The notes below the pieces were generated by a model, which saw only the letters and a program-made list of their open reading frames with translations, had not been told where the DNA came from and did not search any database. A stretch of 64,000 nucleotides of DNA, taken from assembly GCA_964016885.1 (NCBI GenBank), contig OZ024742.1, positions 127,286,001 to 127,350,000 on the forward strand. The letters run 5' to 3'. Both the position numbers and the translations under genes were made by a program. The stretch is from Eledone cirrhosa. Taxonomy: Eukaryota. Shown in pieces: positions 2,870-58,355 of this stretch (the first letter of the stretch is position 1; each line of letters opens with the position of its first letter).

Positions 2870-3874
2870 CTAGCAGTAAAGCCCGGCGTTGCTCGGGGTC
2901 GCTCAGTAGCTGTGTTAAAGTTACAATGTTAAGTTTCTTTTTTGGCTTAAAAACTGTAGTGTCTACTGTGCAGACTTGCATGTGGTGTTTTTGATTAATA
3001 TTCCCTCAACCAACAATATGCCTTATGAAGTTAAGAAAATATAACCCGAATGTTATAACAAAAGAGGATGCTGGGGATAGAAACTGCACTGGTTATTTAT
3101 TAACAAAGATCGAAAATGTAAACACTGCAACGCAGAGAAAAACATTAGCGTAACCAAATTATCAGTTATGTCTGTCTGCACGCCTATATCACCTCTCTGC
3201 ACGACTGTCTGTCTGCACGCCTATATCACCTCTCTGCACGACTGTCTGTCTGCACGCCTATATCACCTCTCTGCACGACTGTCTGTCTGCACGCCTATAT
3301 CACCTCTCTGCACGACTGTCTGTCTGCACGCCTATATCACCTCTCTGCACGACTATCTGTCTGCACGCGTATATCACCTCTCTGCACGACTGTCTGTCTG
3401 CACGCCTAACGACGAAATATTTGCTTGTTTTACGTAGTCTTTAAATAGACTTGTTTTCAAGTAAAAATATTGTTTTAAAATGCTTTTAAATGGAAATGAA
3501 GCAAAACGGAAGCTTAGTGTTCGAACTGATGAATTTTGCAGGTCAATATTTTGCTGGCTCGACAACTGTCTGTTCGTGTATTGTGTTAATGTCATTTTAA
3601 ACGCTGAGAAAGCCAGCGTAATTTTTTACGTAAGACGCTCAATGTAAACAGAACAAAGGGAAATAACTGATAACTTACGCTCAAAAATCGATACATTATA
3701 TTCGATTTCGTCACATAGGGTGGGTGAATTTGAAATATTTTTTTTTCCGATGTCTTCGCTAGGGCTTAATGTACAAGTATAGCAATTTCGGTGCAATTCC
3801 GTGAGAGATTCTAAGAGGAGATGTGTGCCAAAAATCGATAGACAGACAGACAACCACAGTTTTATATATATAGA
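2870..3874 (-). mobile_element. Non-autonomous Helitron
   Basis: On the minus strand: 5' TCTATATATATAAAA at 3874, subterminal hairpin CCCGAGCAACGCCGGG, 3' CTAG at 2870. Inserted between A and T with no TSD; removal restores the LINE frame (KTT-MFNKKTNNE). Confidence 0.9.
3168..3407. repeat. 37-bp minisatellite (about 6.3 copies) inside the Helitron
   Basis: Unit CTGCACGCCTATATCACCTCTCTGCACGACTGTCTGT; CGCCTATA recurs at 3181 and 3218. Confidence 0.95.
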
Positions 3875-4768: not shown

Positions 4769-5218
4769 TCTCTCTTTCTCTTAATTTCAAGTATATTTAT
4801 GACCGGCCACCTTCCTGGTGGCAAGGTTGTAAAAGAAAAGAAATTGTCATCCCTTGAATCGCAAGAATGTTTTGCTAATTTTAAAGGTGCCAGCTATCGC
4901 AGCCATTTGTAGACTATGAATTAGGGAGCTGCGCTCTTTGTCCGCATATCCAAGTTCAGTTATACATTGGTCCAAGCGGGCTGGTATATAACCCGTAGCT
5001 CCAATAATGATGGGTATGAAGCTAAAGGTGTATCTTGGATACTGGATTTGTAAACTCCTCATCAATGGTCCGTAGATGTCCTCCTTCTCCTGTATTTTTT
5101 CTGACAACGTTTACATCAAGTGGGCAGCTGATCTCCACAACAGAACACGTTTTCAATGTGTGGTCCCAAACAACAATATCAGGCCGGTTGTGCTTTAATT
5201 TGGTGACAGTTTTTACTT
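4769..5218 (-). mobile_element. 5'-truncated R4/Dong 3' fragment (RLE domain plus 3' UTR) flanked by (CATA)n
   Basis: HNRPDIVVWD...VVEISCPLD...EKEDIYGPLMRSL...FIPIIIGATG. TATG repeats at 4753-4768 and 5219-5250. Confidence 0.88.
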
Positions 5219-5250
5219 TATGTATGTATGTATGCATATATGTATGTATG

Positions 5251-7562
5251 TCGATTAAAAAGTCGGTTTATGATGTAGGCAGGCGTGTTCTGGGATTGAT
5301 GCAGAGAAAACATCAAGACTGGTTTAATGAGAACGATGAACATATAGAAGACTTGTTGGCTGATAAGAGGCGTGCTCTGTCACGCTACTTGACGGCAAAA
5401 CCACAGCAGAAGAATATGTTGCATAAGGAACTCAATGATGTGAAATCACGTGTTAGGTGGAGTCTCTCTCAGATGAAGGATCAGTGGTGGAGTGAGAAGG
5501 CTGATGAGATACAAACTGCGTCAGATTCCAATAACACAAAGCTGTTGTACAGTCTCTTGCGTGAGGTTTATGGACCGTCTTCTTCTCTGGTGACACCGCT
5601 TCGCAGCAAGGATAGCAAAGAACTTCTTCATGACTCACAAGGAATTCTACGAAGGTGGCGAGAGCTGTTTCATGAGCTTTTGAATCAGCCCTCTGTCGTC
5701 AATGAATATTTCCTCAATCTCATTCCAGAAAGTCCTGTGAAAGTAGCTCTCGCAGAACCTCCGACGATTGTGGAGGTTGCAGTGGCTATTTCGAAGCTGA
5801 ACAGTGGAAGGTCTCCATGTATGGATGGCATACATGCAGAGCTCCTACAATTTGGTCGTGAGAGACTCCTGCAACATCTTCACTCTTTGTTTGGCAGGAT
5901 ATGGGCTAATGAATCCGTACCTGAGGACTGGAGAGATGCAGTAATGGTGGTCTTGTACAAGGGAAAGGGTAACAGGGATGATTGTGGGAACTACAGAGGT
6001 ATATCATTGCTTTCTGTCGTAGGGAAAGTTTTATGTAGGGTGCTTCTGGACCGTCTGCTGACACACATTGCAGATTGTGTTCTTCCTGAAAGTCAATCTG
6101 GTTTTCGTGCTGGACGCGGCACAACTGATATGATCTTCTCAGCTAGACAGCTCCAAGAGAAGTGCATGGAACAAGGTTTGGATCTGTATCAGGTTTTGTC
6201 GATCTGACAAAAGCTTTCGATACTGTTAACAGAAATGTATTATGGAAGGTTCTCCAGAAACTTGGTTGCCCTGATAAGTTCCTTGCTTTAGTTAGGTCTT
6301 TTCATGGCGACATGAAGGCTTGGGTTAATGTCGGAGCCTATCTCAGTAAAAAATGGAGTGAAACAGGGCATATTCCAGCACCGACCCTGTTTGCCATATA
6401 CTTTGCAATGGTTTTCTATATTGCATTCAGAAATTGCGATATCGAACATCAGGCCCTTTGCTGCAAAAACAAAAGTATTTACATCAATCATAAGAGACCT
6501 CTTGTATGCAGATGATTGCGATCTTGTAGCGCACACAGAGAGTGATATGCAGCACATTTTGAATGCATTTTCTGATGCTTGCACTGCCCTAGGATTTACT
6601 GTCAGTCTCAAGATAACCCTCGTCATGTACCAACCTGCCCTGGTAAGCAGTACAGTGAACCAAATATCTATGTGTACGGTAAACGACTTGGGGTGGTTGA
6701 TCAGTTTGTCTACCTGGGGAGCACTGTCAATCGATACAGCATCCTTTAAAATGTAATCCCACTCAGGATTAGGAAAGCAAGTGATGCTTTCGGAAAGCTA
6801 GAAAGACGACTCTGGGGACGGCGAGAGATATGCAAGAAGACAAAGGTAAAGGTGTACAAGGCATGTGTGCTCTCTTCTCTTCTTTATGCCTGCGAGACCT
6901 GGGTCACATATCGACACTACCTTAAGCAATTGGAGCGTTTCCATCAGATGTGTCTCAGACGGATCCATGGCGTTCACTGGAGGGACCACATCGGTGATGT
7001 CGAGATTTTGGAAAGCTCTCTGTGTGACAGTATAGAAGCTCTTGTGCTTAAGCAACGACTCCGTTGGAGTGGTCACCTTGCCAGGATGAAGGATTCTAGA
7101 ATACCAAAACAACTCTTTTATGGAGAGTTAGTTAAAGGAAAACGACCGCCACATAAACCAAAAAAAGAGGTATAAGGATTCCTTGAAAGCCTCTTTGAAA
7201 GACGTTAACATCTCTGCTGATACATGAGAAAATGTTGCTGCTGATCGTAATAAATGGAGAAAGACTGTATATGAGGGAAAAGTTGCCTTTGAGGCATCTT
7301 GAATCTCATATGAGAAAGTCATCTTCGCAGTCATAAAGTAAGACCAGTGGTTGACTACCAGGCTGTTGTTGGAGATGCTACTCATCATGCTTGCCAAGCA
7401 TGTGGTAGAGAATGTAAATCAGCAGGAGGGCTCAAACGACATGCAAAAGTACATGAACTACAACCACAGCCGGCTATTCCCAGTTTTGGTTGCCAACTCT
7501 GTGCAAGACATTTTAGATCATTGGCTGGGCTAAAAAGCCACATTCGATCGCAGCGCTGTTAA
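5251..7562 (+). mobile_element. RTE-clade LINE, 5'-truncated and frameshifted, with two C-terminal C2H2 fingers
   Basis: HQDWFNEN, GNYRGISLLSVVGK, ESQSGFRAGRGTTDMIF, FVDLTKAFDTV, LLYADDCDL, RLRWSGHLARMKDSRIPKQLFYGEL, CQACGRECKSAGGLKRHAKVH, CQLCARHFRSLAGLKSH. Confidence 0.92.
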
Positions 7563-9292: not shown

Positions 9293-10645
9293 ACGTCGTC
9301 TTCTTCTTCTTCTTCTTCTTCTTCTTCTTCTTCTTCTTCTTCTTCTTCTTCTTCTTCTTCTTCTTCTTCTTCTTCTTCTTCTTCTTCTTCTTCTTCTTCT
9401 TCTTCTTCCTTACCCACGTATTCCTAGGAGGATCGTAGGGGGACAGAGTCCTCAGACACAACTTCCAGAGGGTCCTGTCAGAAGCAACGGTTTCCAATTG
9501 ATACGGCTGGATCCCCAATCGAGACCAGCCAAACTTATGGATGTTATTCAACCATCTTTCTTGGGGTTTACTCTTGGGCCTCCATTCGATTGGTTTTGCC
9601 CGTAAAATCTGTCACACGATTCTTTCCTGAGACACTCTAACCACATGCCCATAGTATCGGAGCTGTGATCCCTCAATTCGGAAAAGAAGCGACTCTACCA
9701 GAAGCAACCCTATGCTTTCCGAGCTATGCACTCTATCGAGTAACGTTACTCCAAAGACCCTTCAGAGGAGCCCCATTTTTGCCGCTTGTATTCATGATCG
9801 TATTCTTTCGGTCATTACATAACAATCATGAGTAAGAGTTAGCACAAATTCTGAATTGAAGATAGCGAGTTTGGCTTTTACGGCTACCTTTCTTCTTCTG
9901 ATTACCGAATGCTGAAGCTGGCGCACTATTTCTGATCTGAAGCCGGTCACAATACCATCTTCTGGTGTACATGAGGTGTATCTGGGAACGATAACTAATC
10001 TCTCGGCTGCTGAGGTCACAAGATCAATTAAATACCTCAAAAGTGGCAAGGCCATTGAGGAGGAAGAAATTCGGCCCGAGATGTTAAAAGCGTTAAATAG
10101 AAAAGGTATTCTCTGGCTGACTCGTGAGTACTGGGTGGCTTAGATCTCTGGAATGTCACCTAAGCAATTACAATCGGGAGTCATAATCCCAATTTTCAAA
10201 AAGGAAGACAAGATCGATTGTTTCAATTATAGAAGGATCTCCTTGTTAAGCCTCCCTGGTAAAGTCTATGCTAAGTGTCTGACAAAGAGATTTAGGGATA
10301 TTGCCGAATCCAAGCTAGCCGATGAACCGTGTGGTTTCCGCACTCAACGTAGCACAGTCGAGCAAATATTCACACTACGGCAGGGCTTTGAAATATCGTG
10401 GGAGTACTGCCAAGAGGTTTATACATGCTTTGTTGACCTCAAAAAGGCATTGTACCGCGTTCCACGGGACCTGCTGTGGAAGGTTCTGCAGGAGTATGGG
10501 ATCGATGGACAGCTTCCTGTTGCTTTGATGGCTATATACGAATACCCGAGTATTTGTGTTTGGATAAATGGTGCTAAATCGAAACCATTCAATGTTGGGA
10601 GTCGGACTCCGCCAGAGATTGACATGCGCATCCAGGTTGGGAGTG
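9293..10645. mobile_element. RTE-like LINE remnant: minus-strand 3' end with (GAA)n tail (9293 to about 9930) plus an inverted plus-strand RT segment (about 9940-10645)
   Basis: (TTC)n at 9298-9408. RT motifs FNYRRISLLSLPGKVYAK and [14 protein letters not shown] on the plus strand. The 3' part is homologous to 55880-56400. Confidence 0.82.
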
Positions 10646-10834
10646 CTATGTGTATATATGTGTATGTGTATGTATGTATATATATATATATATATATATG
10701 TGTATGTGTATGTATATATATATATATATATATATATACATACATATGTATATGTATGTATATGTGTATATAGGTGTGTATGTATATGTATGTGTGTGTG
10801 TGTGCATTTGTGTATATGTGCGCATGTGTATATA

Positions 10835-11669: not shown

Positions 11670-12516
11670 CATTAAAAAAAGACGATATTATATATAAACT
11701 GCATTAGGAGAAAATTAGTGACGGAAATATATGAATGTTTATTTAAGCGATCGTTAACCGGAAGTATTGACATTTGAAAATTTTAAAGAAGTGAATCTTA
11801 AAATAAGCAACAAAATTATTTGTATTTAATAAAAAATAACGAAATTTAGTAGATAAATTATGTAATATTCATTCATTATTTATTCAAAATAATCCAACTT
11901 ATTTTACATACGGGATAAAAAAAATATATTCTGGACGCAGTCCCGCACTCCTTACTTTATTATAATTTAGATTCTCAAACTCCGGAGCTGGAAAGCATTT
12001 AGTTATTCTAAATAGAATATCTAAACTATAATAAAGTGCGGGACTGCGTCCAGAATATATTTTTTTATACCGTTTGTAAAATAAGTTGGATTATTTTGAA
12101 TAAATAATTGTTTCTTCTTTTGGCACAAGGCCAGCAAATACCCAGTACATTACTGGTACTTTATTTTATCGACCCCGTAAGGATGAAAGGCAAAGTTAAC
12201 CTCGGCGAGATTTGAACTCAGACCATAAAGGACCGTAACTCTTTGCTGCAAAGCATGGCGTCCGACCCTCTACCGATACTGCCAATCCACCACCATTTTG
12301 AATAAATAATGAATGAATATTACATAATTTATCAACTAAATTTAGTTATTCTTGATTAAATATAAATAATTTTGTTGGTTATTTTAGGATTCACTGCTTT
12401 AAAATTTTCAAATTACAACACTTCCGGTTAGCGATCGCTTAAATAAACAATCATATATTTCCGTCACTAATTTTCCCCTAATGCGGTTTATATATAATAT
12501 CGTCTTTTTTTTAATG
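11670..12516. mobile_element. Fully palindromic foldback/MITE with TA target duplication, carrying a SINE in its right arm
   Basis: TA|CATTAAAAAAAGACGATATTATATATAAAC ... GTTTATATATAATATCGTCTTTTTTTTAATG|TA. Arms are complementary for about 300 bp to a centre near 11990. Confidence 0.9.
12109..12294 (-). mobile_element. Full-length tRNA-derived SINE with 16-bp TSD
   Basis: TSD ATTTTGAATAAATAAT at 12093-12108 and 12295-12310. A-box TGGCAGTATCGG and B-box GAGTTCAAATC on the minus strand. Confidence 0.93.
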
Positions 12517-12703: not shown

Positions 12704-12965
12704 TTAGTCTAATGACTTCTTTTATACCATAAACGTGGTTTTGTTTTTGCAAGAAATTGTTCGTAATTATCCTCGCTTTATTCCCGTTCATTGCCAGGGA
12801 ACGTCCTCACGAATCAAAATATCGTCTTCCTGTTTTCCTTTGGTTGTAACGTTTTTCGAAATATTTACTTCTGCGTTCACAGATTGATTTTTTTAGTTTC
12901 GGAAGATCCCGTTAAGGGTGAAAGCAGCGACTCTTTGCTTAAACTTTAATCTGTTATATTAATAT
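12704..12965 (-). repeat. Single arm of foldback family A
   Basis: Matches 19710-19990 in reverse (GATCCCGTTAAGGGTGAAAGCAGCGA...TTAAACTTTAATCTGTTAT). Confidence 0.85.
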
Positions 12966-12974
12966 ATATATACA

Positions 12975-13014
<40 letters not shown>

Positions 13015-13061
13015 ATTATTATTATTATTATTATTATGTAATAAACAACATAAGGCAATTA

Positions 13062-13121
13062 TTCCATTTACCAGTGGTTTCTTAAAACCAAAAGGTTTTG
13101 CTTTCAATCCTCAGAATGAAA
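13062..13121 (-). ncRNA. Type I hammerhead ribozyme, GUA site (PLE distal copy)
   Basis: UUCAUU-CUGAGGA-UUGAAAGCAAAA/UUUUGGUUUUAA-GAAAC-CACUG-GUA-AAUGGA. Confidence 0.85.
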
Positions 13122-13266
13122 AAATCCTGTTTTGTTTATTGAATTTGGATTTTAAAAAACAAAAATGCAATCTATATGAAAGTGAGGCTGGAGAAGGAAG
13201 AAGGAAAGGAAAAATAAAATAAAACTACACATGCAAACACACACACAAAAACACAAAAGCATACAT

Positions 13267-13299
<33 letters not shown>

Positions 13300-13416
13300 C
13301 ATATATACACATACACATATATATAAAACATACACTTATATACACATACACATACATACACATATACACATACATACATTCATACATACACACGCACACA
13401 CATATACACACACACG

Positions 13417-13452
<36 letters not shown>

Positions 13453-13802
13453 TACATATATATACATGTGTGTACAAGCATACACATACACAAACATAGC
13501 CATACACACACACATATACATACATACATTCACACAATCATACATATATACATACGTACATACATACACATACATAAATGCACTCCTCTACATATTCACA
13601 CACGCAAATAAATATAAGACACACAAAAAAACACAAAAGCATACTTACACACACATACATATATACACATATATAAATGTACGCATACACATATACATAT
13701 ACACATATATATATATATATAAAGAGCGTACACCTACACACACATACACATATATACACACATATACACATACATACATTCATACATACACACACACACA
13801 CA

Positions 13803-13898
<96 letters not shown>

Positions 13899-13900
13899 CA

Positions 13901-13955
<55 letters not shown>

Positions 13956-14337
13956 GTGTGTGTACAAGCATACACATACACACACACATATATATACACT
14001 CATACATACATTCACACAAACATACAACATACACACATACACATACATGAATGCACTCCACTACATATTCACACACGCAAATAAATATAAGAAAAAAATA
14101 TATAAATATATATTAACAAAATTTTTGACAGCGATACATGCCCCAGCTAACAGGACAGACACGCGTGGTAAGTAATACACACAAAAGCACATATACATAC
14201 GTACGAAATAGTAAACACATACACACACTCTCACACATAAATATACATATACAAATACATAAACACGTACATACACATAGATACACAAACACGTACACGT
14301 ATATAATATAAACACACACATGTATATGTAATTATAT

Positions 14338-14382
<45 letters not shown>

Positions 14383-14644
14383 CAAAAATATAAAAATATA
14401 AACGCACACACACATATAAATACGTAAACACACATATACATACATAGCTAAACAATTATACACATGCAAATACGTATATATCAAAAGCACGCACAACCAA
14501 ATACAAACACACACACACACACCCACACACACACCCACACATACATAAAAATAAATAAATACACACGCACACATATACATACATACACATACATATACAC
14601 ATATATACATATATATATATATACATATACATACATATATATAC

Positions 14645-14677
<33 letters not shown>

Positions 14678-14832
14678 CATACACACATACACGTACACAT
14701 ACACACATGCATACACATACACACACACATATACATGTGTGTATGTGTAAAGCTCAGTATTAGATAAGACAAATGAACCTTACATAAACGTATATATAGT
14801 AGTAAAGTAATAAAGCCATACAAGGCAATTAA

Positions 14833-14890
14833 TCCATTCACCAGAGGTTTCTTAAAAGCAAAAAAAGTTTCCTTCAATCTTCAGAATGAA
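14833..14890 (-). ncRNA. Type I hammerhead motif, GUG site (PLE proximal copy)
   Basis: UUCAUU-CUGAAGA-UUGAAGG..CUUUUAA-GAAAC-CUCUG-GUG-AAUGGA. Confidence 0.8.
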
Positions 14891-14965
14891 AAAAAGCCTG
14901 GTTTATCCACATATACATACATACACACACACAAATATACAATTATATACACACATACACACACG

Positions 14966-15047
<82 letters not shown>

Positions 15048-15282
15048 AACATATACGTACATATATACATATATACACATATATATATACACACAAATAT
15101 ACATACACATACACATAGGTATGTGAAGGGCAAAACAAAAAGAATATATGGGGGGGGGGGGCTAAGAGGAGGTAAAAATATAATGGGAGGTAAGGGAGAA
15201 AAAAATTTTAAATATATAAGAGTACAGAAGGTAGAATCAGCAAAATAAAAACCGTAGCAAAAGTAAAGAGCAGAGAAGGAGC

Positions 15283-17030
15283 TCAAGGCGGTTGATTTAT
15301 CGTAGGAGTGTCAATCCAGTTACAGATCAGATGCGATTTCAGATGAGGACAGCATCTGAAGATCTCAGTCTTTGAGTTAAGGCAAGCGGAAGTGGCTCTC
15401 AAGTTTAGCAAAATCCTATACTTTTCTGTGGTACACAAAGAACAATTCTTTGTGCCCCTTTGGTACTCCCTCGAATGGTCTAATATAGACCAATCAATAG
15501 AGTACGGGATATTACTATCCTTGAGATCCCATACCTTACTTGCGAGGGCCGTTGATGTTCGTTTATCTGAGTGTTTAAAAGAAGCGACATGTGAGTAAAA
15601 TCTGGTTTTAAACCTGTCCTGGGTCATACCGACATATCGCTCACTTCTGGCTGGCTGGTTGTTGATAACTGGCGTTATCTTAGCCTCATAAACGACAGAT
15701 TTTGTGTTACATTTACCCTGCAATGGGCATTCATCCGGCTTCCTGCAGCTGCATCCTGGATTTATCCTCGTACGGTTTGAACTGGTGATTTTGGACTTCA
15801 TGGATGGGCAACAAGAGTAGCTGATCTTAACTACATTCCTATTAAAAATCTTATAATATCTATGAATAGGAGGAAAATGTTTGTCTAATAGTTCAAGGAA
15901 TTTCCTTCCTACATTAGTTTTGACATTTAGAGAGAAGGGGGGTGTGAACCAAATAATCTTCCTTTTCCTGTTATTATGGTTAGTTTTTTTTTGGGGGGGG
16001 GGGAGTAGGTAAATAAGAAATATTTTCTGTAAAACCGCTGTTCTTAAGGGCTTTATTATAATAAGGGGCGGCTTTATTAAAAATGTCTATAGACGAAGAT
16101 AAGGTAGAAATCCTACGGCTAATGTTAGGAATAAGATTATTAAAAACTATAGGGGGATGGCAAGACTCTTTGTGTATATACCTAAGATTTTCATTAGGTT
16201 TATGATAGGGTTTAAAAGAGGCAGTAAGTAGATCAAGATTAATATCAAGAAAGTTAGCATTGGTAAGGTTCGTATCTATAGTAATTTTAAGGTTAAGATT
16301 AGCAAAGGTACTAATTAAATCTTTACGGAATTTATCAAGATTATGGCCGTTGGTGGTATGAGAAACTGCTAATCCGTCATCACGGTATAAACCGATATTA
16401 TGGGACGGAAATTTCTCTTTGAGTGTGTGGAGAAGGAATAATCCTACTAAGTCGCACACATCCGCACTGTCATAGGAACCCATTGCAACATCGAAAGAGT
16501 TTTCAGGGTTTGACTTTTTAACCCAAATATTAAAAGTAAAGTTTTTCTAGCATGAAAGATAATGTCCTCTTCTAATTTGGAGATATTAATGAAGGGTCTT
16601 GCAAAATCTAAGGCTTTAGTTAATAAGGAAACAGTAATAGAAGGGTAAAAATCGACAATATCAAATTGGGAAAATCTACACTTATTTTTACCTTGTATAT
16701 TATTGAACCAAGAAATAACAGAGGAAGTATTTAGCCACTGTGAAAGGACAGTGTTAGTTCTAATTTGGAGAATTATTTTTCTTAAGATTTTCTTACTAGC
16801 AAGGCCAACCTCGGATTTAGCCGGGTTAATCAGTCTACAACTAGGTCGATTAGTAAAGTCCAATTTATGGTCTTTAAGGGTAATATATTCTTTACGCTTA
16901 GCTAAGCTTTCAATCCGGTTATCTATTTGTAAAGAACTAGCTAGTTCTTTAGCTTCTTTATTGATAGTATTGTAGCTATTATTATTAGTTAATTGATATT
17001 TATTGGTAATACTATTAGTTAAAAGTTGGT
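15283..17030 (-). pseudogene. PLE RT/GIY-YIG ORF, 5'-truncated, at least two frameshifts
   Basis: CRLINPAKSEVG, QFDIVDFYPSI, MGSYDSADVCDL, GLYRDDGL, FLDINLDL, IIWFTPPFS, CSCRKPDECPLQGKC, VVYEAKI...YVGMTQDRFKTRFYSH, CSLCTTEK, LNSKTE. Confidence 0.92.
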
Positions 17031-17176
17031 TATACAAATATATACATAGATATACATATGCATACACATACACACACATACATGTGTGTATGTGTAAAAC
17101 TCAGTCTTAGATAATTCATATGAACCTTACATATACGTATATATAGTAAAGTAATAAAGCAACATAAGGCAATTAT

Positions 17177-17234
17177 TCCATTCACCAGTGGTTTCTTAAA
17201 AGCAAAAAATGTTTCCTTCAATCTTCAGAAAGAA
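17177..17234 (-). ncRNA. Type I hammerhead motif, GUG site (pseudo-LTR copy)
   Basis: Same core (CUGAAGA...GAAAC-CACUG-GUG-AAUGGA) with one stem I mismatch. Confidence 0.78.
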
Positions 17235-17550
17235 AAAAACCTGGTTTATCCACATATACATATACACACACAAATATATACATATATATACACACATACA
17301 CATACACACACATACATATATATATATACATACATATATACATATATATATATATACACACAAATATACATACACATACACATAGGTGTGTGAAGGGCAA
17401 GGCAAAAAGAATACTGGGGGGGGGGGGGGCATAAGAAAAGGTAAAATATAAGGGGAGGTAAGGGAGAAAAAAAAAGTAAATATATAAGAGTACAGAACGT
17501 AGAATCAGCAAAATAAAAACCGTAGCAGAAGTAAAGAGCAGAAAAGGAGT

Positions 17551-18340
17551 TCAAGGCGGTTGATTTATCATAGAAGTGTCAATCCAGTTACAGATCAGAT
17601 GCGATTTCAGATGAGGACAGCATCTGAAGATCTCAGTCTTTGAGTTAAGGCAAGCGGAAGTGGCTCTCAAGTTTAGCAAAATCCTATACTTTTCTGTGGT
17701 ACACAAAGAACAATTCTTTGTGCCCCTTTGGTACTCCCTCGAATGGTCTAATATAGGCCAATCAATAGAGTACGGGATGTTACTATCCTTGAGTTCCCAC
17801 ACCTTACTTGCGAGGGCCGTTGATGTTCGTTTATCGGAGTGCTTAAAAGAAGCGACATGTGAGTAAAATCTGGTTTTAAACCTGTCCTGGGTCATACCGA
17901 CATATCGCTCACTCCTGGCTGGCTGGTTGTTGATTACTGGTGTTATCTTAGCCTCATAAACGACAGATTTGGTGTTACATTTACCCTGCAATGGGCATTC
18001 ATCCGGCTTCCTGCAACTGCATCCTGGATTTATTCTCGTACGGTTTGAACTGGTGATTTTGGACTTCATAGATGGGCAACAAGAGTAGCTGATCTTAACT
18101 ACGTTCCTATTAAATATCTTATAATATCTATGATTAGGAGGAAAATGTTTGTCTAATAGTTCAAGGAATTTCCTTCCTACATTAGTTTTGACAGTTAGAG
18201 AGAAGGGGGGTGTGAACCAAATAATCTTCCTTTTCCTGTTATTGTGGTTAGTTTTAGGGGTGGGGGGAGTAGGTAAATAAGAAATTTTTTCTGTAAAACC
18301 GCTGTTCTTAAGGGCTTTATTATAATAAGGGGGCGGCTTT
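17551..18340 (-). pseudogene. Duplicated GIY-YIG part of the PLE ORF (pseudo-LTR copy)
   Basis: Near-identical to 15283-16075 and open over this span. It breaks at 18340, where the inverted copy starts. Confidence 0.9.
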
Positions 18341-18641
18341 TCTTCAGATGCTGTCCTCATCTGAAATCGCATCTGATCTGTAACTGGATTGACACTCCTA
18401 TGATAAATCAACCGCCTTGAACTCCTTCTCTGCTCTTTACTTCTGCTACGGTTTTTATTTTGCTGATTCTACGTTCTGTACTCTTATATATTTACTTATT
18501 TTTTTCTCCCTTACCTCCCCTTATATTTTACCTTTTCTTATGCCCCCCCCCCCCCATATATTCTTTTTGCCTTGCCCTTCACATACCTATGTGTATGTGT
18601 ATGTATATTTGTGTGTATATATATATATGTATATATGTATG

Positions 18642-18672
<31 letters not shown>

Positions 18673-18741
18673 GTATGTGTGTATATATATGTATATATTT
18701 GTGTGTGTATATGTATGTATATGTGGATAAACCAGGTTTTT

Positions 18742-18799
18742 TTCATTCTGAAGATTGAAGGAAAAATTTTTTGCTTTTAAGAAACCACTGGTGAATGGA
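18742..18799 (+). ncRNA. Type I hammerhead motif, GUG site (inverted copy, proximal)
   Basis: TTCATT-CTGAAGA-TTGAAGG..CTTTTAA-GAAAC-CACTG-GTG-AATGGA. Confidence 0.8.
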
Positions 18800-18932
18800 A
18801 TAATTGCCTTATGTTGCTTTATTACTTTACTACTATATATACGTATATGTAAAGTTCATATGAATTATCTAAGACTGAGTTTTACACATACACACATGTA
18901 TGTGTGTGTGTATGTGTATGCATATGTATATG

Positions 18933-18975
<43 letters not shown>

Positions 18976-19412
18976 ATATATATATATATATATCTGTGTG
19001 TGTATATAATTACATATACATATGTGTGTGTATATATTGTATATGTGTGCGTGTTTGTGCATGTATGTGTATGTATGTGTTTATGTATTTGTATATGTAT
19101 ATTTATGTGTGAGAGTGTGTGTATGTGTTTACGATTTCGTACGTATGTATACGTGCATTTGTGTGTATTACTTACCACGCGTGTCTGTCCAGTTAGCTGC
19201 CTTATGTAACGGTGTCAAAAATTTTTAATATATATATATTTTTTTCTTATATTTATTTGCGTGTGTGAATATGTAGAGGAGTGCATTTATGTATGTGTAT
19301 GTATGTACGTATGTATATATGTATGATTGTGTGAATGTATGTATGTATATGTGTGTGTGTATGGCTATGTTTGTGTATGTGTATGCTTGTACATATAATG
19401 TATATATATGTA

Positions 19413-19448
<36 letters not shown>

Positions 19449-19450
19449 CA

Positions 19451-19516
<66 letters not shown>

Positions 19517-19581
19517 AATGTATGTATGTGTATATGTGTATGTGTATATAAGTGTATGTTTTATATATATGTGTATGTGTA

Positions 19582-19626
<45 letters not shown>

Positions 19627-19709
19627 ATAATAATAAAATTGAAGACTAAAATCCAAAGAGGGATCGATAAGGAAAATATATATCAAATATATAAGAACCG
19701 TAGAGCAAA

Positions 19710-20342
19710 TATTTATTAAAATAACAGATTAAAGTTTAAGCAAAGAATCGCTGCTTTCACCCTTAACGGGATCTTCTGAAACTAACAAAGTTAATCTGTA
19801 AACGCAGAACTGGATATTTCAAAAAACGTTGCAACCGGAGGAAGACAGGAAGACGATACTTTGGTTCGTGGTAACGTTCGCTGGTAAAGAACGGGAAAAA
19901 ACGAATAATACGTCATTAATAGGAGCGGTGAAAAACAATTACGCGCAAAGACAAAACCACGTTTATGGTATAAAAGAGGTCGTAGACTAATGTTCTCTTA
20001 GGTGGTGCATAGAGACGTTCTCTGGCAATGAACGAAAAAACGAAGATAATAAGTCATATGTGGGGCGTGGAGAACAATAGCACGCAAAGACAAAACCACG
20101 TAAATGGTATAGCAGAAATCGTAGACTAAAATTCTACTATTAATGACGTATTATTCGTTTTTTCCCGTTCTTTACCAGCGAACGTTACCACGAACCAAAG
20201 TATCGTCTTCCTGTCTTCCTCCGGTTGCAACGTTATTTGAAATATCCAGTTCTGCGTTTACAGATTGACTTTGTTAGTTTCAGATGATCCCGTTAAGGGT
20301 GAAAGCAGCGATTCTTTGCTTAAACTTTAATCTGTTATTTTA

Positions 20343-20348
<6 letters not shown>
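19710..20348. mobile_element. Foldback family A element (two inverted arms plus an internal partial direct repeat) in the (TA)n of the inverted PLE arm
   Basis: TATTTATTAAAATAACAGATTAAAGTTTAAGCAAAGAATCGC ... GCGATTCTTTGCTTAAACTTTAATCTGTTATTTTAATAAATA. Absent from the mirror PLE arm. Confidence 0.88.
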
Positions 20349-20436
<88 letters not shown>

Positions 20437-20596
20437 ATGTGTGTGTATGTATGTATGCTTTTGTGTTTTTGTGTGTGTGTTTGCATGTGTAGTTTTATTT
20501 TATTTTTCCTTTCCTTCTTCCTTCTCCAGCCTCACTTTCATATAGATTGCATTTTTGTTTTTTAAAATCCAAATTCAATAAACAAACCAGGATTTT

Positions 20597-20654
20597 TTCA
20601 TTCTGAGGATTGAAAGCAAAACCTTTTGCTTTTAAGAAACCACTGGTAAATGGA
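20597..20654 (+). ncRNA. Type I hammerhead ribozyme, GUA site (inverted copy, distal); best-preserved copy
   Basis: TTCATT-CTGAGGA-TTGAAAGCAAAA cc TTTTGCTTTTAA-GAAAC-CACTG-GTA-AATGGA; long stem II and 6-bp stem I. Confidence 0.88.
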
Positions 20655-20840
20655 ATAATTGCCTTATGTTGTTTATTACATAATAATAATTAAGCTCTGT
20701 TGCCTACATAGAGCACTCTTTTTTCCTGGACTTTTCCGACGGAATTACTTCATTCACACATATATATATATATATATATATATAAACGGAAAAAATGAAA
20801 CGAAATTTCATTTCCCACTCTTAGTACGGCTGTTACTTAA

Positions 20841-21268
20841 ATATAAGTATGTATACGTACATACATATATGTATACAGACGTACAGTAGTATGTATATAT
20901 ATATATATACATACATGCACACATATATATATGTACGTATGGATTCACCAAACATTTATTATAATGCTCGGTGTGTTTGTAAACAAACATCCCGTATTAA
21001 GCCGTAGTGTCTAGCAACCACCGTTGCTGGTTCAAGCTAACAAGCTTGAAACTAGTACAGCGTTCCTTTGTCAGTGTTGAACAAACGAGCAACGGTGGTT
21101 GCTAGACACTACGGCTTAATACGGGATGCTTGTTTACAAACACACAGAGCATTATAATAAATGTTTGGTGAATCCATACGTACATATATATATATATGTG
21201 TGCATGTATGTATATATATATACATACTACTGTACGTCTGTATACATATATGTATGTACGTATACATA

Positions 21269-21275
<7 letters not shown>
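20841..21275. repeat. Palindromic foldback element with about 190-bp arms
   Basis: AAGTATGTATACGTAC...GTCTAGCAACCACCGTTGCT [about 55-nt spacer] AGCAACGGTGGTTGCTAGAC...GTACGTATACATACTT. Confidence 0.9.
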
Positions 21276-21302
<27 letters not shown>

Positions 21303-22058: not shown

Positions 22059-22622
22059 TGTAACGTTTTTCGAAATATTTACTTCTGCGTTCAAAGATTG
22101 ATTTTTTTTAGTTTCAGAAGATCTCGTTAAGGGTGAAAGCAGCGATTCTTTGCTTAAACTTTAATCTATTATTTTAATATATATATAATTATATATTCGT
22201 GTACAGATATTTTTGCATACACAATAACAAAATATAAACAAACGTATTTATTTCACGAGGCTCGATAAGGATAAATATATATAAAATATATGAGAACCCT
22301 AGAGCAAATATTGTTCTCATTGCTGACGAGGCAGAAGGGGATATACACGATTGGCTGAAGAAGGACGAGACTGTGTTAGTAGTACGACCAACGGCTGCTA
22401 TCACACCAACAGCAGCAAAAACAACAACAGAGAGGGAACGCAATTACTTGCTTTTGAAAAATCTTAATGGAAAATGATTTGCCTATTCACCCAAGGCGAC
22501 TTCACTTTTTATTAGGACTTCTGCATCAATTGGTGAACATACGAAGAAACTGTTTCAGAAATGAGGGATAAACATGCCAATCTATGTTTAGAATCCCGAG
22601 CAACGCCGGGCCATTCTGCTAA
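21374..22622 (+). mobile_element. Head-to-tail non-autonomous Helitron units
   Basis: 3' end CCCGAGCAACGCTGGG-CCATTCTG-CTAG at about 21601-21628, followed by a TC-start 5' end at about 21635 that resembles 49110-49229. The same 3' end recurs at about 22595-22622. Confidence 0.75.
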
Positions 22623-22910
22623 TATTTATTAAAATAACAGATTAAAGTTTAAGCAAAGAATCGCTGCTTTCACCCTTAACGGGATCTTCTGAAATTAAAA
22701 AAATCAATCTGTGAACGCAGAAGTAAATATTTCGAAAAACGTTGCAACCGAAGGAAAACAGGAAGACGATACTTTGGTCCGTGAAGACGTTCCCTGGCAA
22801 TGAACGGAAAAAAGCGAAGATAATACGTTGTTATGTGGAACGCTGAGAAAAAATACACGCAAAGAGAAAACCAAGTTTATGGTATAAATGGAGTCAATAG
22901 ACTAATATTC
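22623..22910 (+). repeat. Single arm of foldback family A (another partial arm at about 22060-22180)
   Basis: Matches 19710-19992. Confidence 0.85.
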
Positions 22911-23107
22911 TATTTAGGAAACCGAATGATTCTCGGCTTAGGAGTTAAGAATAATGTAAATAAATTAGTTAAACGAAAATGACAGAGGTTATTAAAATCG
23001 TAAAAGTACTAAATACACATATAAATATATATATATATATGTGTGTGTGTGTGTATACATATATATATATATATATTTATTAAAATAAATATACACGCAT
23101 AAAAGCG

Positions 23108-34630: not shown

Positions 34631-34735
34631 CGAAACTAATAAGACTTTTTGTACCTGTTTGTTGTCTAACTATATATATATATAAAATAAATTAAAATAA
34701 ATAAGTCAAATATTTAAAATTTGGCTTCGTTTATT

Positions 34736-34790
34736 ACTGCTATATATATTTCGGTGACAGCCATCTTTGGCTGTGACCTCTTCAGGCAGT
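34736..34790 (-). ncRNA. Intact minimal type I hammerhead ribozyme (AUA site) in a short PLE-like 3' fragment
   Basis: ACUGC-CUGAAGA-GGUCACAGCCA aaga UGGCUGUCACC-GAAA-UAUAUA-UA-GCAGU, then AAUAAA. Confidence 0.9.
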
Positions 34791-34888
34791 CCGAATTAGT
34801 GTGGTAGAGACGAGTACACATGTTGTTGAGGTGTATAACTTCGTCAATACTCTGATATGTTGTTGTTTCTATGAGGAATTGGAATCAG

Positions 34889-39770: not shown

Positions 39771-41320
39771 AACCAGAAATGGCTGAAGTACCATAGTGGT
39801 TGACACAAGGCAACACGGTTCTAATAATGAAAGACCAAGCTAAGAGAAAATTACGTTAACAACTATAAGCCTATCACATGTCTGTCCTTGATGTAGAAAT
39901 TGCTAACAAGCATTATGTCTGAGGAAATCTACAACCACCTAGGCATAAACAACTTATTGTCAGCGGAACAGAAAGGATGCCGAAAGAAGTCCCATGGTAC
40001 AACAGAGCAGTTACTTATTGACAGGATGAGGATAAGGAACTGCAAGAGAAAGCATATTAGTCTTTCCATGGGATGGATAGATTACAAGAAGGCATTCGAC
40101 ATGGTTCCTCATTCTTGGATAACCAAGTGCCTAGAAATCTTCAAAGTCGCGGACAACATTAGACTGCTTTCAAGCATGAAGAACTGGGAGACAAAGTTAA
40201 TATCGAGGGGAGAATCCTTGGGAGGAGTGAAAATCAAGAGTGGTATGTCCTTTATTGTTTGTCCTTACCCTCATAGCCTTGTCCGTTGTATTGAGAAGAG
40301 TGAAGGTAGGATACGAACTGGGAAGATGAAAGCTTATCATCAACCACCTCCAGTTCATGGATGACCTAAAACACTTCGGGAAGAACGAGAAGGAATTGGA
40401 TGTACTTGCTAATACTGTTCGTATTTTCAGCAATGATATAGGTATAGAATTTGGTATTAAGTGTAGAGTCCTAGTGATGAGGAGAGATAAGTTGAAGAAA
40501 GGCAAAGGAATCGAGAAACCAGTGGGTGAAGTGATAAAGGAGGTAGACACCGAAGAAGAATACAGGTATTTGAGTGTTTTGGGAGTAGATTTTATCAAGG
40601 ACAATAAAATGAAGGAGATGATAAGATCTGACTACATAAGGAGACTAAGAAAAATACTAAAATCTCATTTGAATAGTAGGAATGCCATAAGTGCAATAAC
40701 TTTCCGAGCTGTGTCTATTATTAAGTACAGTGCGGGAATTCTTAAATGGAATGTAAACGAGCAAAAAGAAATGGACAGAAAGACAAGGAAATTAATGACT
40801 ACCTACAGTATGTTTCACAAGAAAAATGATGTTTATAGACTCTATTTAAAGAGAGCTGAAGGCGGGAGAAGACTGTGTACAGATGGAGTAGAGCTGCTTA
40901 CATAAATATGTGTCTGAGAGTAATGAGCCAATGTTTAAGGCTGTATTGAAGGGGGTGTCCAAGAAAAGAAGTAACGACAAACAGGAAGAACAACCTGAAT
41001 GAAAAAGCCATTCATAACGTCTGCTTGAAGAAAACAGAATTCAGAGATCCGCAGACGCCTAACTGGTTTAAAAAATGGAACCTTAAAAAAGCTACAGATA
41101 AATGCTGCTGGCTGCACAGTAGCAAGCCCTCAGAACGAAGTGGGTGAAACACCATATTGTCAAGGAGGAAGCTAGCCCACTCTGTAGGATCTGTGGAGAG
41201 AGAAAGGAAACTGTGGCTCTCATCGTATCCCAATGTAAATACCTAGCCCAGATTCATTATGGAGGCATGATATCATAGGGAAAGTGATCCACTAGCATTT
41301 ATGCAAACTGAATGATTTAC
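39771..41320 (+). mobile_element. Second degenerate R4/Dong-type LINE (RT to CCHC)
   Basis: EQKGCRKKSHGTTEQLLID, WIDYKKAFDMVPHSWI, MDDLKHFGKNE, YRLYLKRAEGGR, CRICGERKETV. Confidence 0.85.
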
Positions 41321-53277: not shown

Positions 53278-53509
53278 TACTCGTTCTAGTTTCTTTTTTC
53301 GTTTTACATGCCATCTGTGAGACCTAGCGTCCTAAGATTTTATCACACCACTTTTTCCCATGTTTTTCTCTTACACTGGTCTTTGAAATTCAAACGTTTC
53401 AACCTGGAGTGCCTGAAATTTGGAGGAAATCCCTATTCAATCCCATACTCCCGGAGAAACTTTTATCTATTGCCAAATGTCCCGTTAAATAATTTGTTTT
53501 CTCTTTCAG

Positions 53510-53883
53510 GTTTTGAAAATATCGAAACACCATGTTCTGGAAATTTAGTAAACTCAAGCGGACCACCACACTGCAAAATGCCAAATGTCTGCAGTCGAAA
53601 AGCTATTGAAAATGAAGATATATATTTTCCTTACACAGACCCCAGAATATTTGTGAAGTGCTTGGACACCTATAAATATTATATAATGTCTTGTCCACCA
53701 AAGTTTGCTTGGTCCCAGTCTACTGATGCCTGTGTTCCCGTGGACTCCGGGAACGACAATAAAGCTTATCAATATTCACGAGACACTGGTGGTTCCTCAA
53801 TTATTGTCAACAGCTGGCGGTTGATTTGGCTCTCTTTATCGATATATTTTATTGGTTTATACCAACAATTCCAACTTATTTGA
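53510..53883 (+). CDS. Terminal exon: chitin-binding type-2 (peritrophin-A)-like domain plus hydrophobic C-terminus
   Basis: Acceptor TTGTTTTCTCTTTCAG; C..YFPYTDPRIFVKC..YIMSCPPKFAWSQSTDACV; tail SSIIVNSWRLIWLSLSIYFIGL; AATAAA at about 53911, 53976 and 54079. Confidence 0.75.
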
Positions 53884-55861: not shown

Positions 55862-56790
55862 TGGTCATCATCATCATCATCATCTTCTTCTTCTTCTTCT
55901 TCTCTCACCTTCCTGGGAGGGTCAGAGTCTTCAAACACGCCTTCCGAAGGGTCTTGTCAGAAGCAACCGTCTGCAACTGATCCAGCTGGATCCGCAAGCG
56001 AGACCAGCCAAGCTCATGGATGTTATCCATCTTGCTCGAGGTCTACACCTGGTTCTCCTATCGATTAGTTTTGCCCGTAAAATCTGCCCAGTCATTCATT
56101 CCTGTGACATTCTAACCACATGCCTATAGCATCGGAGCTGTGATCTTTCAATTCGGAGAAGTAGAGGCTCTACTTGGAATGACTCTCTGATCTCTGAGCT
56201 ATGCACTCTATCAAGTAACGTTACTCCGAAGACCCTTCAGAGGAACGCTATTTCGGCCGCTTGTATTCGCAATAGTATTCTTTCGGTCGTTACTCAAGAT
56301 TCATGACCATAGGTACGGGTTGGCACGAATACCGAATTGAAGATAGTGAGTTTGGCTTTTACACCTACCTCCCTTCTGATGAAAGAATGCTGAAGCTGGT
56401 ACAATTACTGAATCAGCTCCTTTAATTCTTGCACTTATGAACATGGTCCCGGTATACTTAAACCTCTCCACCCAGGTTTCCTTGAGTGGATGAGCGTTTC
56501 TGTCTTCGCAGCACTGATTTTTATTCCAGGTCTCGGCAGCAAACCTATCAAGTGTATGTCATCTACAAATGCCAACCGACTGATGCTTCACCCGCCAGTC
56601 TCGATACCGCTTCCACTCGGCTGCCCATGGAGTTTATGAACAGGAGAGCGACAGCACGCACTCTTGGCAGAGTCAAACACCTACATTGAATTATTTTGAT
56701 TTAGCACCATTTATCCAAACACAAATACTAGGAGACATCGGGGCAACAAGAAGCTGTCCATTGATCTCATACTCCTGCAGAAACTTCTGG
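55862..56790 (-). mobile_element. RTE-like LINE 3' remnant with (GAA)n/(GAT)n tail
   Basis: Homologous to 9410-9930 and to the reverse of about 10480-10600. Confidence 0.8.
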
Positions 56791-56896
56791 TGTCATCACT
56801 TTAATTGCTCTTGTGACCTCAGCCTCCGAGAGGTTAGTCATTGCTACCAGATACACCTCATGTACATCTTAAGACACTGTTGTGAGAAGAAATTAA

Positions 56897-58355
56897 CACC
56901 ATCACACCCTTTTGTTAATACTACCATCACACCCTGTTGTCAACACTACCATCTCACCCTATTACTGCCACCACCATCTCACCCTATTAGTGACACCACT
57001 ATCCTACTCTCTTGTCAACACCACCATCCTACCCTATTACTGACACCACAATCACACCCTGTTGTCAACACTACCATCTCACCCTATTACTGCCACCACC
57101 ATCTCACCCTATTAGTGACACCACTATCCTACTCTCTTGTCAACACCACCATCCTACCCTATTACTGACACCACAATCACACCCTGTTGTCAACACTACC
57201 ATCTCACCCTATTACTGCCACCACCATCTCACCCTATTAGTGACACCACTATCCTACTCTCTTGTCAACACCACCATCCTACCCTATTACTGACACCACA
57301 ATCACACCCTGTTGTCAACACTACCATCTCACCCTATTACTGCCACCACCATCTCACCCTATTAGTGACACCACTATCCTACTCTCTTGTCAACACCACC
57401 ATCCTACCCTATTACTGACACCACAATCACACCCTGTTGTCAACACTACCATCTCACCCTATTACTGCCACCACCATCTCACCCTATTACTGACACCACT
57501 ATCCTACTCTCTTGTCAACACCACCATCTCACCCTATTACTGACACCACCATCCCACCCTGTTGTCAACACCACCATCCTACCCTATTACTGACACCACC
57601 ATCCCACCCTGTTGTCAACACCACCATCCTACCCTATTACTGACACCACCATCCCACCTTGTTGTCAACACTACCATCCCACCCTGTGTCAACACCATCA
57701 TCTCACTCTGTTACTGACATCCCCATCTCACCCTATTACTGACACCACCATCCCACTCTGTTGTCAACACCACCATCTCACCCTATTACTGACACTACCA
57801 TCTCATCCTGTTGTCAACACCACCATCTCACCCTGTTGTCAACACCACCATCCTACCCTATTACTGACACCACCATCCCACCCTGTTGTCAACACTACCA
57901 TCCCACCCTGTGTCAACACCATCATCTCACTCTGTTACTGACATCCACATCTCACCCTATTACTGACACCACCATCCCACTCTGTTGTCAACACCACCAT
58001 CTCACCCTATTACTGACACTACCATCTCATCCTGTTGTCAACACCACCATCTCACCCTATTACTGACACTACCATCTCATCCTGTTGTCAACACCACCAT
58101 CTCACCCTGTTGTCAACACCACCATCACCTTGTTGTCAACACTACCATCTCACCCTATTACTGACACCACCATCCCACCCTGTTGTCAACACCACCATCT
58201 CACCCTATTACTGACACTACCATCTCATCCTGTTGTCAACACCACCATCCCACCCTGTTGTCAACAGCACCATCACCTTGTTATCAACAATACCATCACA
58301 CTCTGTTGTCAACACCACCATCACACCCTGTTGTCAACACCACCATCTCACCACC
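56897..58355. repeat. Minisatellite of about 22-25-bp monomers with a 125-bp higher-order repeat
   Basis: Monomers CACCACCATCTCACCCTATTACTGA and CACCACCATCCCACCCTGTTGTCAA. Near-identical ORFs recur at 57012, 57137, 57262 and 57387. Confidence 0.95.

Follow-up and report, generated by a model that had tools for sequence, protein, structure and literature searches.

Why would a retrotransposon keep two self-cleaving ribozymes in one untranslated region (UTR) and let one of them lose the base at which it ought to cut? The question is raised by a locus in Eledone cirrhosa, within a window of 64,000 nucleotides (contig OZ024742.1, positions 127,286,001 to 127,350,000), where five type I hammerheads lie between positions 13,062 and 20,654 in a Penelope-like retrotransposon (PLE). 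A sequence-only reading of this stretch had described inner motifs with GUG and terminal motifs with GUA at the cleavage triplet, and had suggested that the former serve the latter as catalytic partners. Counts over independent insertions establish that this asymmetry is fixed across hundreds of insertions of the family, and that the GUG motif was kept as a fold after losing its NUH triplet (H being any base except G). The best single reading of these facts, which we regard as evenly poised, is that the inner GUG motif is a candidate catalytic partner of the terminal GUA hammerhead.

All five hammerheads sit where they had been placed, with GUG in the three inner and GUA in the two terminal copies. 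By the tests for type I hammerheads the terminal copy has CUGANGA, GAAA, stems I-III and an NUH triplet; the inner copy has the core and all three stems but fails at the triplet. The inner copies (14833, 17177 and 18742) retain CUGAAGA and GAAA as described, but a core shared by all five exists only in the form CUGANGA/GAAA, the terminal cores being CUGAGGA. Two stem III types, ACCUCUGGU and ACCACUGGU, are represented: the near-palindrome of the type I motif, read as ACC-ACU-GGU, was rightly recognized, but the 14833 copy reads ACC-UCU-GGU and is of type ACCUCUGGU, not ACCACUGGU. Stem I is common to the copies in general, except for a private A>U change in the 17177 copy, owing to which an initial motif scan missed it. 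Stem II comprises 7-11 bp and closes with a U-A (U10.1-A11.1) rather than a G-C pair. The inner-to-terminal spacing of about 1.8 kb was confirmed (1770 and 1855 nt). Among the matches listed by Rfam (150 of 156) there was no hammerhead family. The features, in order of position, are as follows.

13027..13061, minus strand: post-cut sequence to the short element end, followed by the (TAA)n/(TA)n target
13062..13121, minus strand: terminal (distal) type I hammerhead in the left arm of an older (stage G4) insertion; core CUGAGGA/GAAA, stem III ACCACUGGU, GUA, N17 at 13069
13144..13235, minus strand: U2, a unique UTR block upstream of the terminal hammerhead, of stage G3/G4 type
13619..17039, minus strand: copy from a younger subfamily (stage G5), truncated at its 5' end and spliced into the left arm
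14833..14890, minus strand: inner hammerhead of the G5 copy; CUGAAGA/GAAA, stem III ACCUCUGGU, GUG, N17 at 14839
15283..17020, minus strand: part of the open reading frame (ORF) with reverse transcriptase (RT) and GIY-YIG, 5'-truncated and with the frame broken here; Hydra-clade motifs CxCX5C, CxxC and CxH
17177..17234, minus strand: inner hammerhead of the older left arm; GUG, N17 at 17183, private stem I A>U
17551..18340, minus strand: 3' part of the ORF (endonuclease region) in the older left arm
18341..18741, plus strand: right (inverted) arm with the last codons of the ORF, UTR block U1 and microsatellite
18742..18799, plus strand: inner hammerhead of the right arm; GUG, C3 at 18748, N17 at 18793
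19620..20350, no strand assigned: later insertion of about 730 nt, foreign to the element, in the microsatellite spacer of the right arm; contains a 217-nt inverted repeat
20597..20654, plus strand: terminal hammerhead of the right arm; GUA, C3 at 20603, N17 at 20648
20655..20754, plus strand: post-cut tail; the long element end lies some 106 nt beyond the cut and is followed by (TA)n

The copies had been thought to come from one insertion; instead, the window holds two subfamilies, a younger G5 copy being spliced into an older two-armed insertion whose left arm runs from 18340 to 13027 (minus strand) and whose right arm runs from 18341 to about 20754 (plus strand). The ORF end, U1, inner motif and M2 of the younger copy are each 97-100% identical to the G5 consensus, and this copy has no terminal hammerhead of its own. 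As the 14833 motif belongs to the younger subfamily and the 13062 motif to the older arm, their pairing is a chimera. About 300 nt of spacer in the older arm have been replaced by the G5 copy, whose own end is absent; this pattern suggests recombination between subfamilies or template switching, not simple nesting.

By inspection of its motifs the host element is a Hydra-type PLE. Complete units of 4.25-4.29 kb are found elsewhere in the 3.0-Gb genome, and one of them (locus L065) consists of a GUA motif, 226 nt, the AUG, a single ORF of 709 aa, about 400 nt, the GUG motif, 1.45 kb of mainly microsatellite sequence, a second GUA motif and the end. Because the complete unit opens with a GUA motif before the AUG, the terminal GUA motif is the ordinary hammerhead of the pseudo-long terminal repeat (pLTR) and the inner motif is an extra one. 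The 709-aa ORF is intact in L065 and in other copies, and many copies with an intact frame are 98-100% identical, which implies that the family is young. Its protein displays the Hydra-clade motifs MRWKA (RWK), SDKTK (DKT), CSCRKPDEC (CxCX5C), CSLC (CxxC) and CPH (CxH), along with an RT core YRDD read directly from the sequence, and its endonuclease core is, by inspection rather than alignment to reference proteins, devoid of the internal CCHH, as in the Hydra clade. Pfam gave no direct match for the element protein; a relative (P0002) carries the GIY-YIG domain PF01541. Insertion into (TA)n, partial tandems, inverted 5'-truncated arms and a one-sided tail are further Hydra-clade habits found here. 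The description "under 3 kb, one hammerhead per unit" does not apply to this family, but that trait is general rather than diagnostic, and the ancestors of the family had one motif. Nor is the element a non-LTR retrozyme (LTR, long terminal repeat), i.e. a set of non-coding tandem units each with a cleavable hammerhead: it codes for a protein, and its motif-to-motif spacer is single and microsatellite-rich.

How general is the GUG/GUA pair? The family hammerhead pattern has 5165 matches genome-wide against none for the reversed control, hence the motif is not due to chance, and 582 of the matches have GUG. For the young inner type (CUGAAGA-UUGAAGG) a base other than G occurs at position 17 in 2 matches only, through one point change and one inserted base. 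An anchor at the ORF end (526 matches) provided 98 distinct sites (loci L001-L172, nearly all from the first 100 matches on contig C1), a sample that under-represents the oldest stages. The inner motif of these copies is GUG in 85, GUA in 3 and GUC in 2, i.e. GUG in 85/90, the other 8, most of them interrupted or deleted, having no inner motif within 900 nt. Terminal copies have GUA in 143/150, some of the loci having been chosen because they bear GUG, and the median spacing between inner and terminal motifs is 1354 nt (87 pairs). GUA at proximal positions, or random decay of the core, had been named as grounds for abandoning the partner proposal. The former does occur in an older subfamily, but as an ancestral stage from which GUG is derived; as to the core, no variant is common to two GUG copies among 124 grouped copies.

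Copies preserved in this one genome show, on comparison, a series leading from one hammerhead to GUA/GUA and then to GUG/GUA. A marker of the old stages, just downstream of the inner position, has 168 matches; out of 30 such loci, 17 (four of them one local tandem) lack the inner motif and have the ancestral spacer uninterrupted, 4 have an inner GUA and 9 begin in other sequence, while 10/15 longer stretches run from the ORF end or U1 through the spacer to just one terminal motif. Requiring GUA along with the inner upstream context yields 23 matches, most of which represent the older subfamily with GUA at both positions (8/87 complete pairs). In that subfamily the inner block, flanked by (TA)n, corresponds in sequence to the final ~95 nt before the element's short end, and in two loci (L184 and L191) the inner stem II marker is identical to that of the terminal copy; in the window, the right-arm inner motif at 18742..18799 likewise lies in a ~95-nt block copying the element's own short end. 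We read this block as a 5'-truncated self-copy of the element end inserted into its own (TA)n tract; the element has inserted such short 5'-truncated end copies thousands of times elsewhere. A tree made from the ORF end and UTR blocks, with the motifs left out, separates single from dual copies (support 95/85) and unites 29 GUG copies in one clade (100/100), a ladder ending in the youngest copies; its direction follows from three observations (the youngest group lies 0.2% from its consensus, the two blocks were identical early on, and U7 occurs in a sister family as well) rather than from a formal outgroup. These comparisons show A17G following the duplication and becoming fixed in the lineage that gave rise to all later subfamilies.

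A second origin of GUG is suggested, but not established, by locus L378, a single insertion with GUG in both arms that nests among GUA copies (approximately unbiased (AU) test, p 0.057). A-to-G editing as the source of its G17 was rejected, there being no sense-strand excess of A>G. The inner motif as the original element end was likewise rejected: the long tail is found on 0/154 inner copies, the single apparent match being a misclassed terminal copy, and the ancestors have no inner motif. Copies at L175/L176, L177, L128 and L148 end just after the inner-position motif or lack the spacer, and are likely to be recombinants between homologous blocks, or starts at the inner copy. Contigs from six runs of other organisms were compared. 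In one run (X5) position 17 is A in 230.8 of 274.9 depth with G retained, and in three more (X6-X8, with contigs mostly of terminal copies) it is A only; in all of these the contigs are too short to link the base to a motif position.

The fate of the inner copy after it became GUG is the evidence for its being under selection. Over six GUG stages 0/41 core and stem sites changed, compared with 21/64 free sites (Fisher p 8e-6), or 14/64 if one upstream replacement is set aside. During the same span 32/135 synonymous sites of the ORF end, and 8/57 four-fold non-CpG sites, came to differ, a synonymous divergence of 14-24%, and the UTR blocks differ at 9-28%. That no core or stem site changed while synonymous sites diverged to this extent indicates that the hammerhead fold is under selection. 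Singletons that arose after insertion are spread evenly (29 on constrained and 27 on free sites), unlike the fixed steps (0 and 8; p 0.006). The sole free core base, N7, changed twice, and the flank 3' of the inner motif decayed by 7-8 fixed steps, the same flank being invariant after the terminal motif.

What then could a presumably uncuttable hammerhead do? PLE hammerheads are reported to act as dimers (PMC4209133; PMC6765202). Stem III of the monomer is predicted to be marginal (+0.4 kcal/mol, pair probability 0.12-0.52), and the strand-swapped double hammerhead suggested earlier is indeed favoured by prediction, lying 7.8-10.8 kcal/mol below two monomers at all stages, with the cost of the long loop left out. 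In the predicted swapped fold each core is set opposite the other motif's triplet, the inner one at the terminal GUA and the terminal one at GUG. At the youngest stage the inner 5' strand is predicted to pair over 9 bp with the terminal 3' strand versus 6 bp with its own, and the minimum free energy (MFE) structure of the whole 1.5-kb span also pairs these two strands. A weak near-palindromic stem III and better pairing between motifs, both characteristic of dimers, are thus present by prediction. A sister family combines ACCUCUGGU with GUA.

Under the proposed mechanism, a short 3'-end copy landed in the element's own (TA)n tract, adding a second hammerhead, and this inner copy later changed from GUA to GUG with its core and stems retained. 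An inner cut would probably have been harmful, in that it would separate the ORF from the region where copies end and reverse transcription presumably starts, which would provide a reason to select G17. If G17 blocks cleavage in a motif with this long stem II, and if the strand swap forms in the RNA, the inner copy could act as the catalytic half of a swapped dimer and cut the GUA of the neighbouring terminal motif, while the ORF would stay joined to the remaining RNA since the inner site is uncut. The terminal cut would then trim the RNA 226 nt upstream of the AUG of the next unit, or feed circularisation. The stricter version, an obligate heterodimer in which one copy would serve purely as catalyst, with an active core and an uncleavable site, appears to us a little short of probable. 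The premise that hammerheads need NUH was too strong, in that G17 variants cleave 8- to 100-fold slower, although it fits the minimal type, which is strongly impaired (PMC3884650); as G17 leaves 1-12% of the rate in tertiary-stabilised hammerheads, the "non-cleavable" nature of the inner motif is itself a prediction.

Several observations weigh against a catalytic partner. The 11 core bases taken alone are not significantly conserved (P 0.05-0.17), so that a fold kept for binding or stability fits equally well, and the free-site count is inflated because the stage groups were partly defined by inner-motif markers. Amplified side branches carry mismatches in the inner stem II (U10.1>C in 4 copies, G>U in 4 copies); in the Hydra motifs listed in File S2 of PMC8557442 the base of stem II often has mismatches. 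In both motifs N7 went from U to G at a similar stage, which hints that short stretches were converted between the two. The whole-span MFE structure does not contain the full double hammerhead, the dimer energies omit the cost of closing a loop of 1.2-1.5 kb, and in the youngest stages A>U at L3 makes the heterodimer helix less stable, from -8.2 to -7.0 kcal/mol, on the side expected to be active. The single-motif ancestors spread widely (the 168 old-stage marker matches), and this still older subfamily without an inner motif implies that no partner is required for mobility. Finally, in the anole PLE cleavage is unnecessary for insertion in vitro, and the protein is needed for cleavage (PMC11167929).

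Alternatively, the GUG motif may persist as an RNA structure with no catalytic role, for example as a second site of protein binding or loading or as an organiser of the microsatellite UTR, the core being conserved as part of the fold. The stems do hold most of the conservation signal (30/41 sites) and keep their wobble pairs at the sequence level, and the anole PLE hammerhead is protein-assisted and lies within a region that its protein needs (PMC11167929). However, the decay of the inner downstream flank, whose invariant counterpart after the terminal motif holds the element ends, means that the start signal was not kept, and no core variant is common among the GUG copies; we consider this alternative unlikely. 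Somewhat less likely again is that G17 was selected as an off-switch for a harmful internal cut and that the rest of the motif is a relic, seemingly conserved through conversion and the small number of sites. GUG was fixed early on one branch, with the possible second rise in L378, and the shared N7 change and L177-type recombinants (inner 5' joined to terminal 3' parts) show that blocks are exchanged. Yet the inner-specific bases (stem II G, A7, L3 U, G17 and stem I U) are interleaved every 6-13 nt and persisted over many stages, so conversion would have had to spare each of them; moreover, 0/41 has a P of 0.001-0.013 at neutral rates of 0.15-0.10, and the upstream replacement of the youngest stage halts just short of stem I. 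Least probable is a slowed self-cleaver, cutting a minor fraction of transcripts 3' of the ORF, thereby tuning full-length template against cut RNA: G17 variants do retain 1/8 to 1/100 of the wild-type rate and are active in cells (PMC3884650), and such a role would hold every core base under selection, but a stem II of 7-11 bp with a marginal stem III marks the minimal type that G17 strongly impairs (PMC3884650), and no tertiary contact was identified in these motifs.

A further element of the original proposal, that a single cut defines the element end, is contradicted by the copies themselves. Of 144 terminal copies, 132 end downstream of the cut at one of two distances (71 at 30-49 nt and 61 at 100-119 nt), 7 continue into the ORF that follows, 1 ends at an intermediate distance and 4 were left unscored. 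The terminal cut does not set the integrated end; it may serve RNA trimming or circularisation. That the cut sets the 5' ends was also rejected, 39 junction matches at the cut against 19 and 65 in neighbouring control windows giving no peak, with 5' junction patterns that differ somewhat in their odds of detection, even though 9/30 loci began at the cut.

Comparable arrangements are known in part. Hydra-clade PLEs (Craig et al. 2021, PMC8557442) likewise have a C-terminal GIY-YIG, RWK, DKT, CxCX5C, CxxC and CxH, (TA)n targets, a one-sided tail and a type I hammerhead close to the 3' end whose near-palindromic stem III has an odd length (e.g. acca-a-tggt in File S2). Most Hydra elements listed in that file are shorter than 3 kb, and each has a single sense hammerhead whose cut site is A, C or U; the Eledone family differs in its 4.3-kb unit and two sense motifs, the inner one with G17. 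Minimal dimeric PLE hammerheads (Cervera and de la Pena 2014, PMC4209133) share the weak palindromic helix III and long helix II, and also have two motifs per RNA able to swap strands (PMC4209133; PMC6765202). However, the known dimers are formed by two equal cleavable motifs in both pLTRs of tandem copies, whereas the Eledone motifs are unequal, lie within one UTR and include one non-NUH site. In the anole PAc Poseidon element (Frangieh et al. 2024, PMC11167929) two reverse-transcription starts 3' of the cut likewise define the tail, with no reported sign of ends at the cut; that element has one hammerhead per unit, overlapping the start codon, unlike the Eledone element, whose terminal motif lies 226 nt before the AUG and which has a second motif. 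The G17 variants of Kalweit and Hammann (2013, PMC3884650) similarly combine G at the cleavage site with an intact core. They are engineered mutants of four tertiary-stabilised hammerheads, with neither an evolutionary series nor a partner role, and presumed natural G17 motifs are mentioned as unpublished and untested. Non-LTR retrozymes (PMC7229834; bioRxiv 10.64898/2026.07.22.740005) also have a non-coding hammerhead-to-hammerhead segment tied to PLEs, and by analogy the GUA/GUA stage could have released a retrozyme-like piece of 1.2 kb; unlike retrozymes, however, the Eledone segment is not tandem and stays within a coding element. In the literature searched there is no description of an unequal GUG/GUA pair in a PLE, though a mention in supplements or in Lunse et al. 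is possible.

How PLE hammerheads are used, and whether dimers act in cells, are posed as questions in PMC8557442, PMC4209133 and PMC11167929. The present family offers a natural experiment on both, with single, GUA/GUA and GUG/GUA versions of one element and with selection on a motif that lacks an NUH cut site of its own. If the inner motif is in truth a catalytic partner, it would represent a natural ribozyme duplicate in which enzyme and substrate roles have been divided, and would furnish direct evidence of in vivo selection for dimeric PLE hammerheads.

Other hammerheads and repeats accompany this family. The window contains a type I hammerhead of another family at 34735-34791 (minus strand), with CUGAAGA, a 26-nt stem II, a palindromic AUAUAUAU stem III and AUA, of which a relative occurs in L022. 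At least 8 other hammerhead families, mostly with palindromic stem III and AUA, GUH or CUH triplets, occur in the same (TA)n-rich loci (e.g. L013, L026, L042, L114, L124, L126, L197, L253 and L308), and sister families of the present one combine UUU or UCU at L3 with GUA. The 217-nt inverted-repeat element of 19620-20350 has related pieces at 12762-12978, 22059-22918, L136 and L012; it inserts into (TA)n tracts and was twice found within the UTR of this PLE. At 20838-21278, 11674-12511, 56772-57900 and 3132-3427 there are another two inverted-repeat elements, whose arms measure 195 nt and 217 nt, together with a minisatellite (25/125 nt) and a tandem repeat of 37 nt. Gene fragments for reverse transcriptases of the long interspersed nuclear element (LINE) type, unrelated to the hammerheads, lie at 543-2794, 5026-6207, 10144-10773 and 39897-40905. 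An open frame of 197 aa at 53290-53883 includes a cysteine-spaced stretch that presumably resembles a chitin-binding-type domain.

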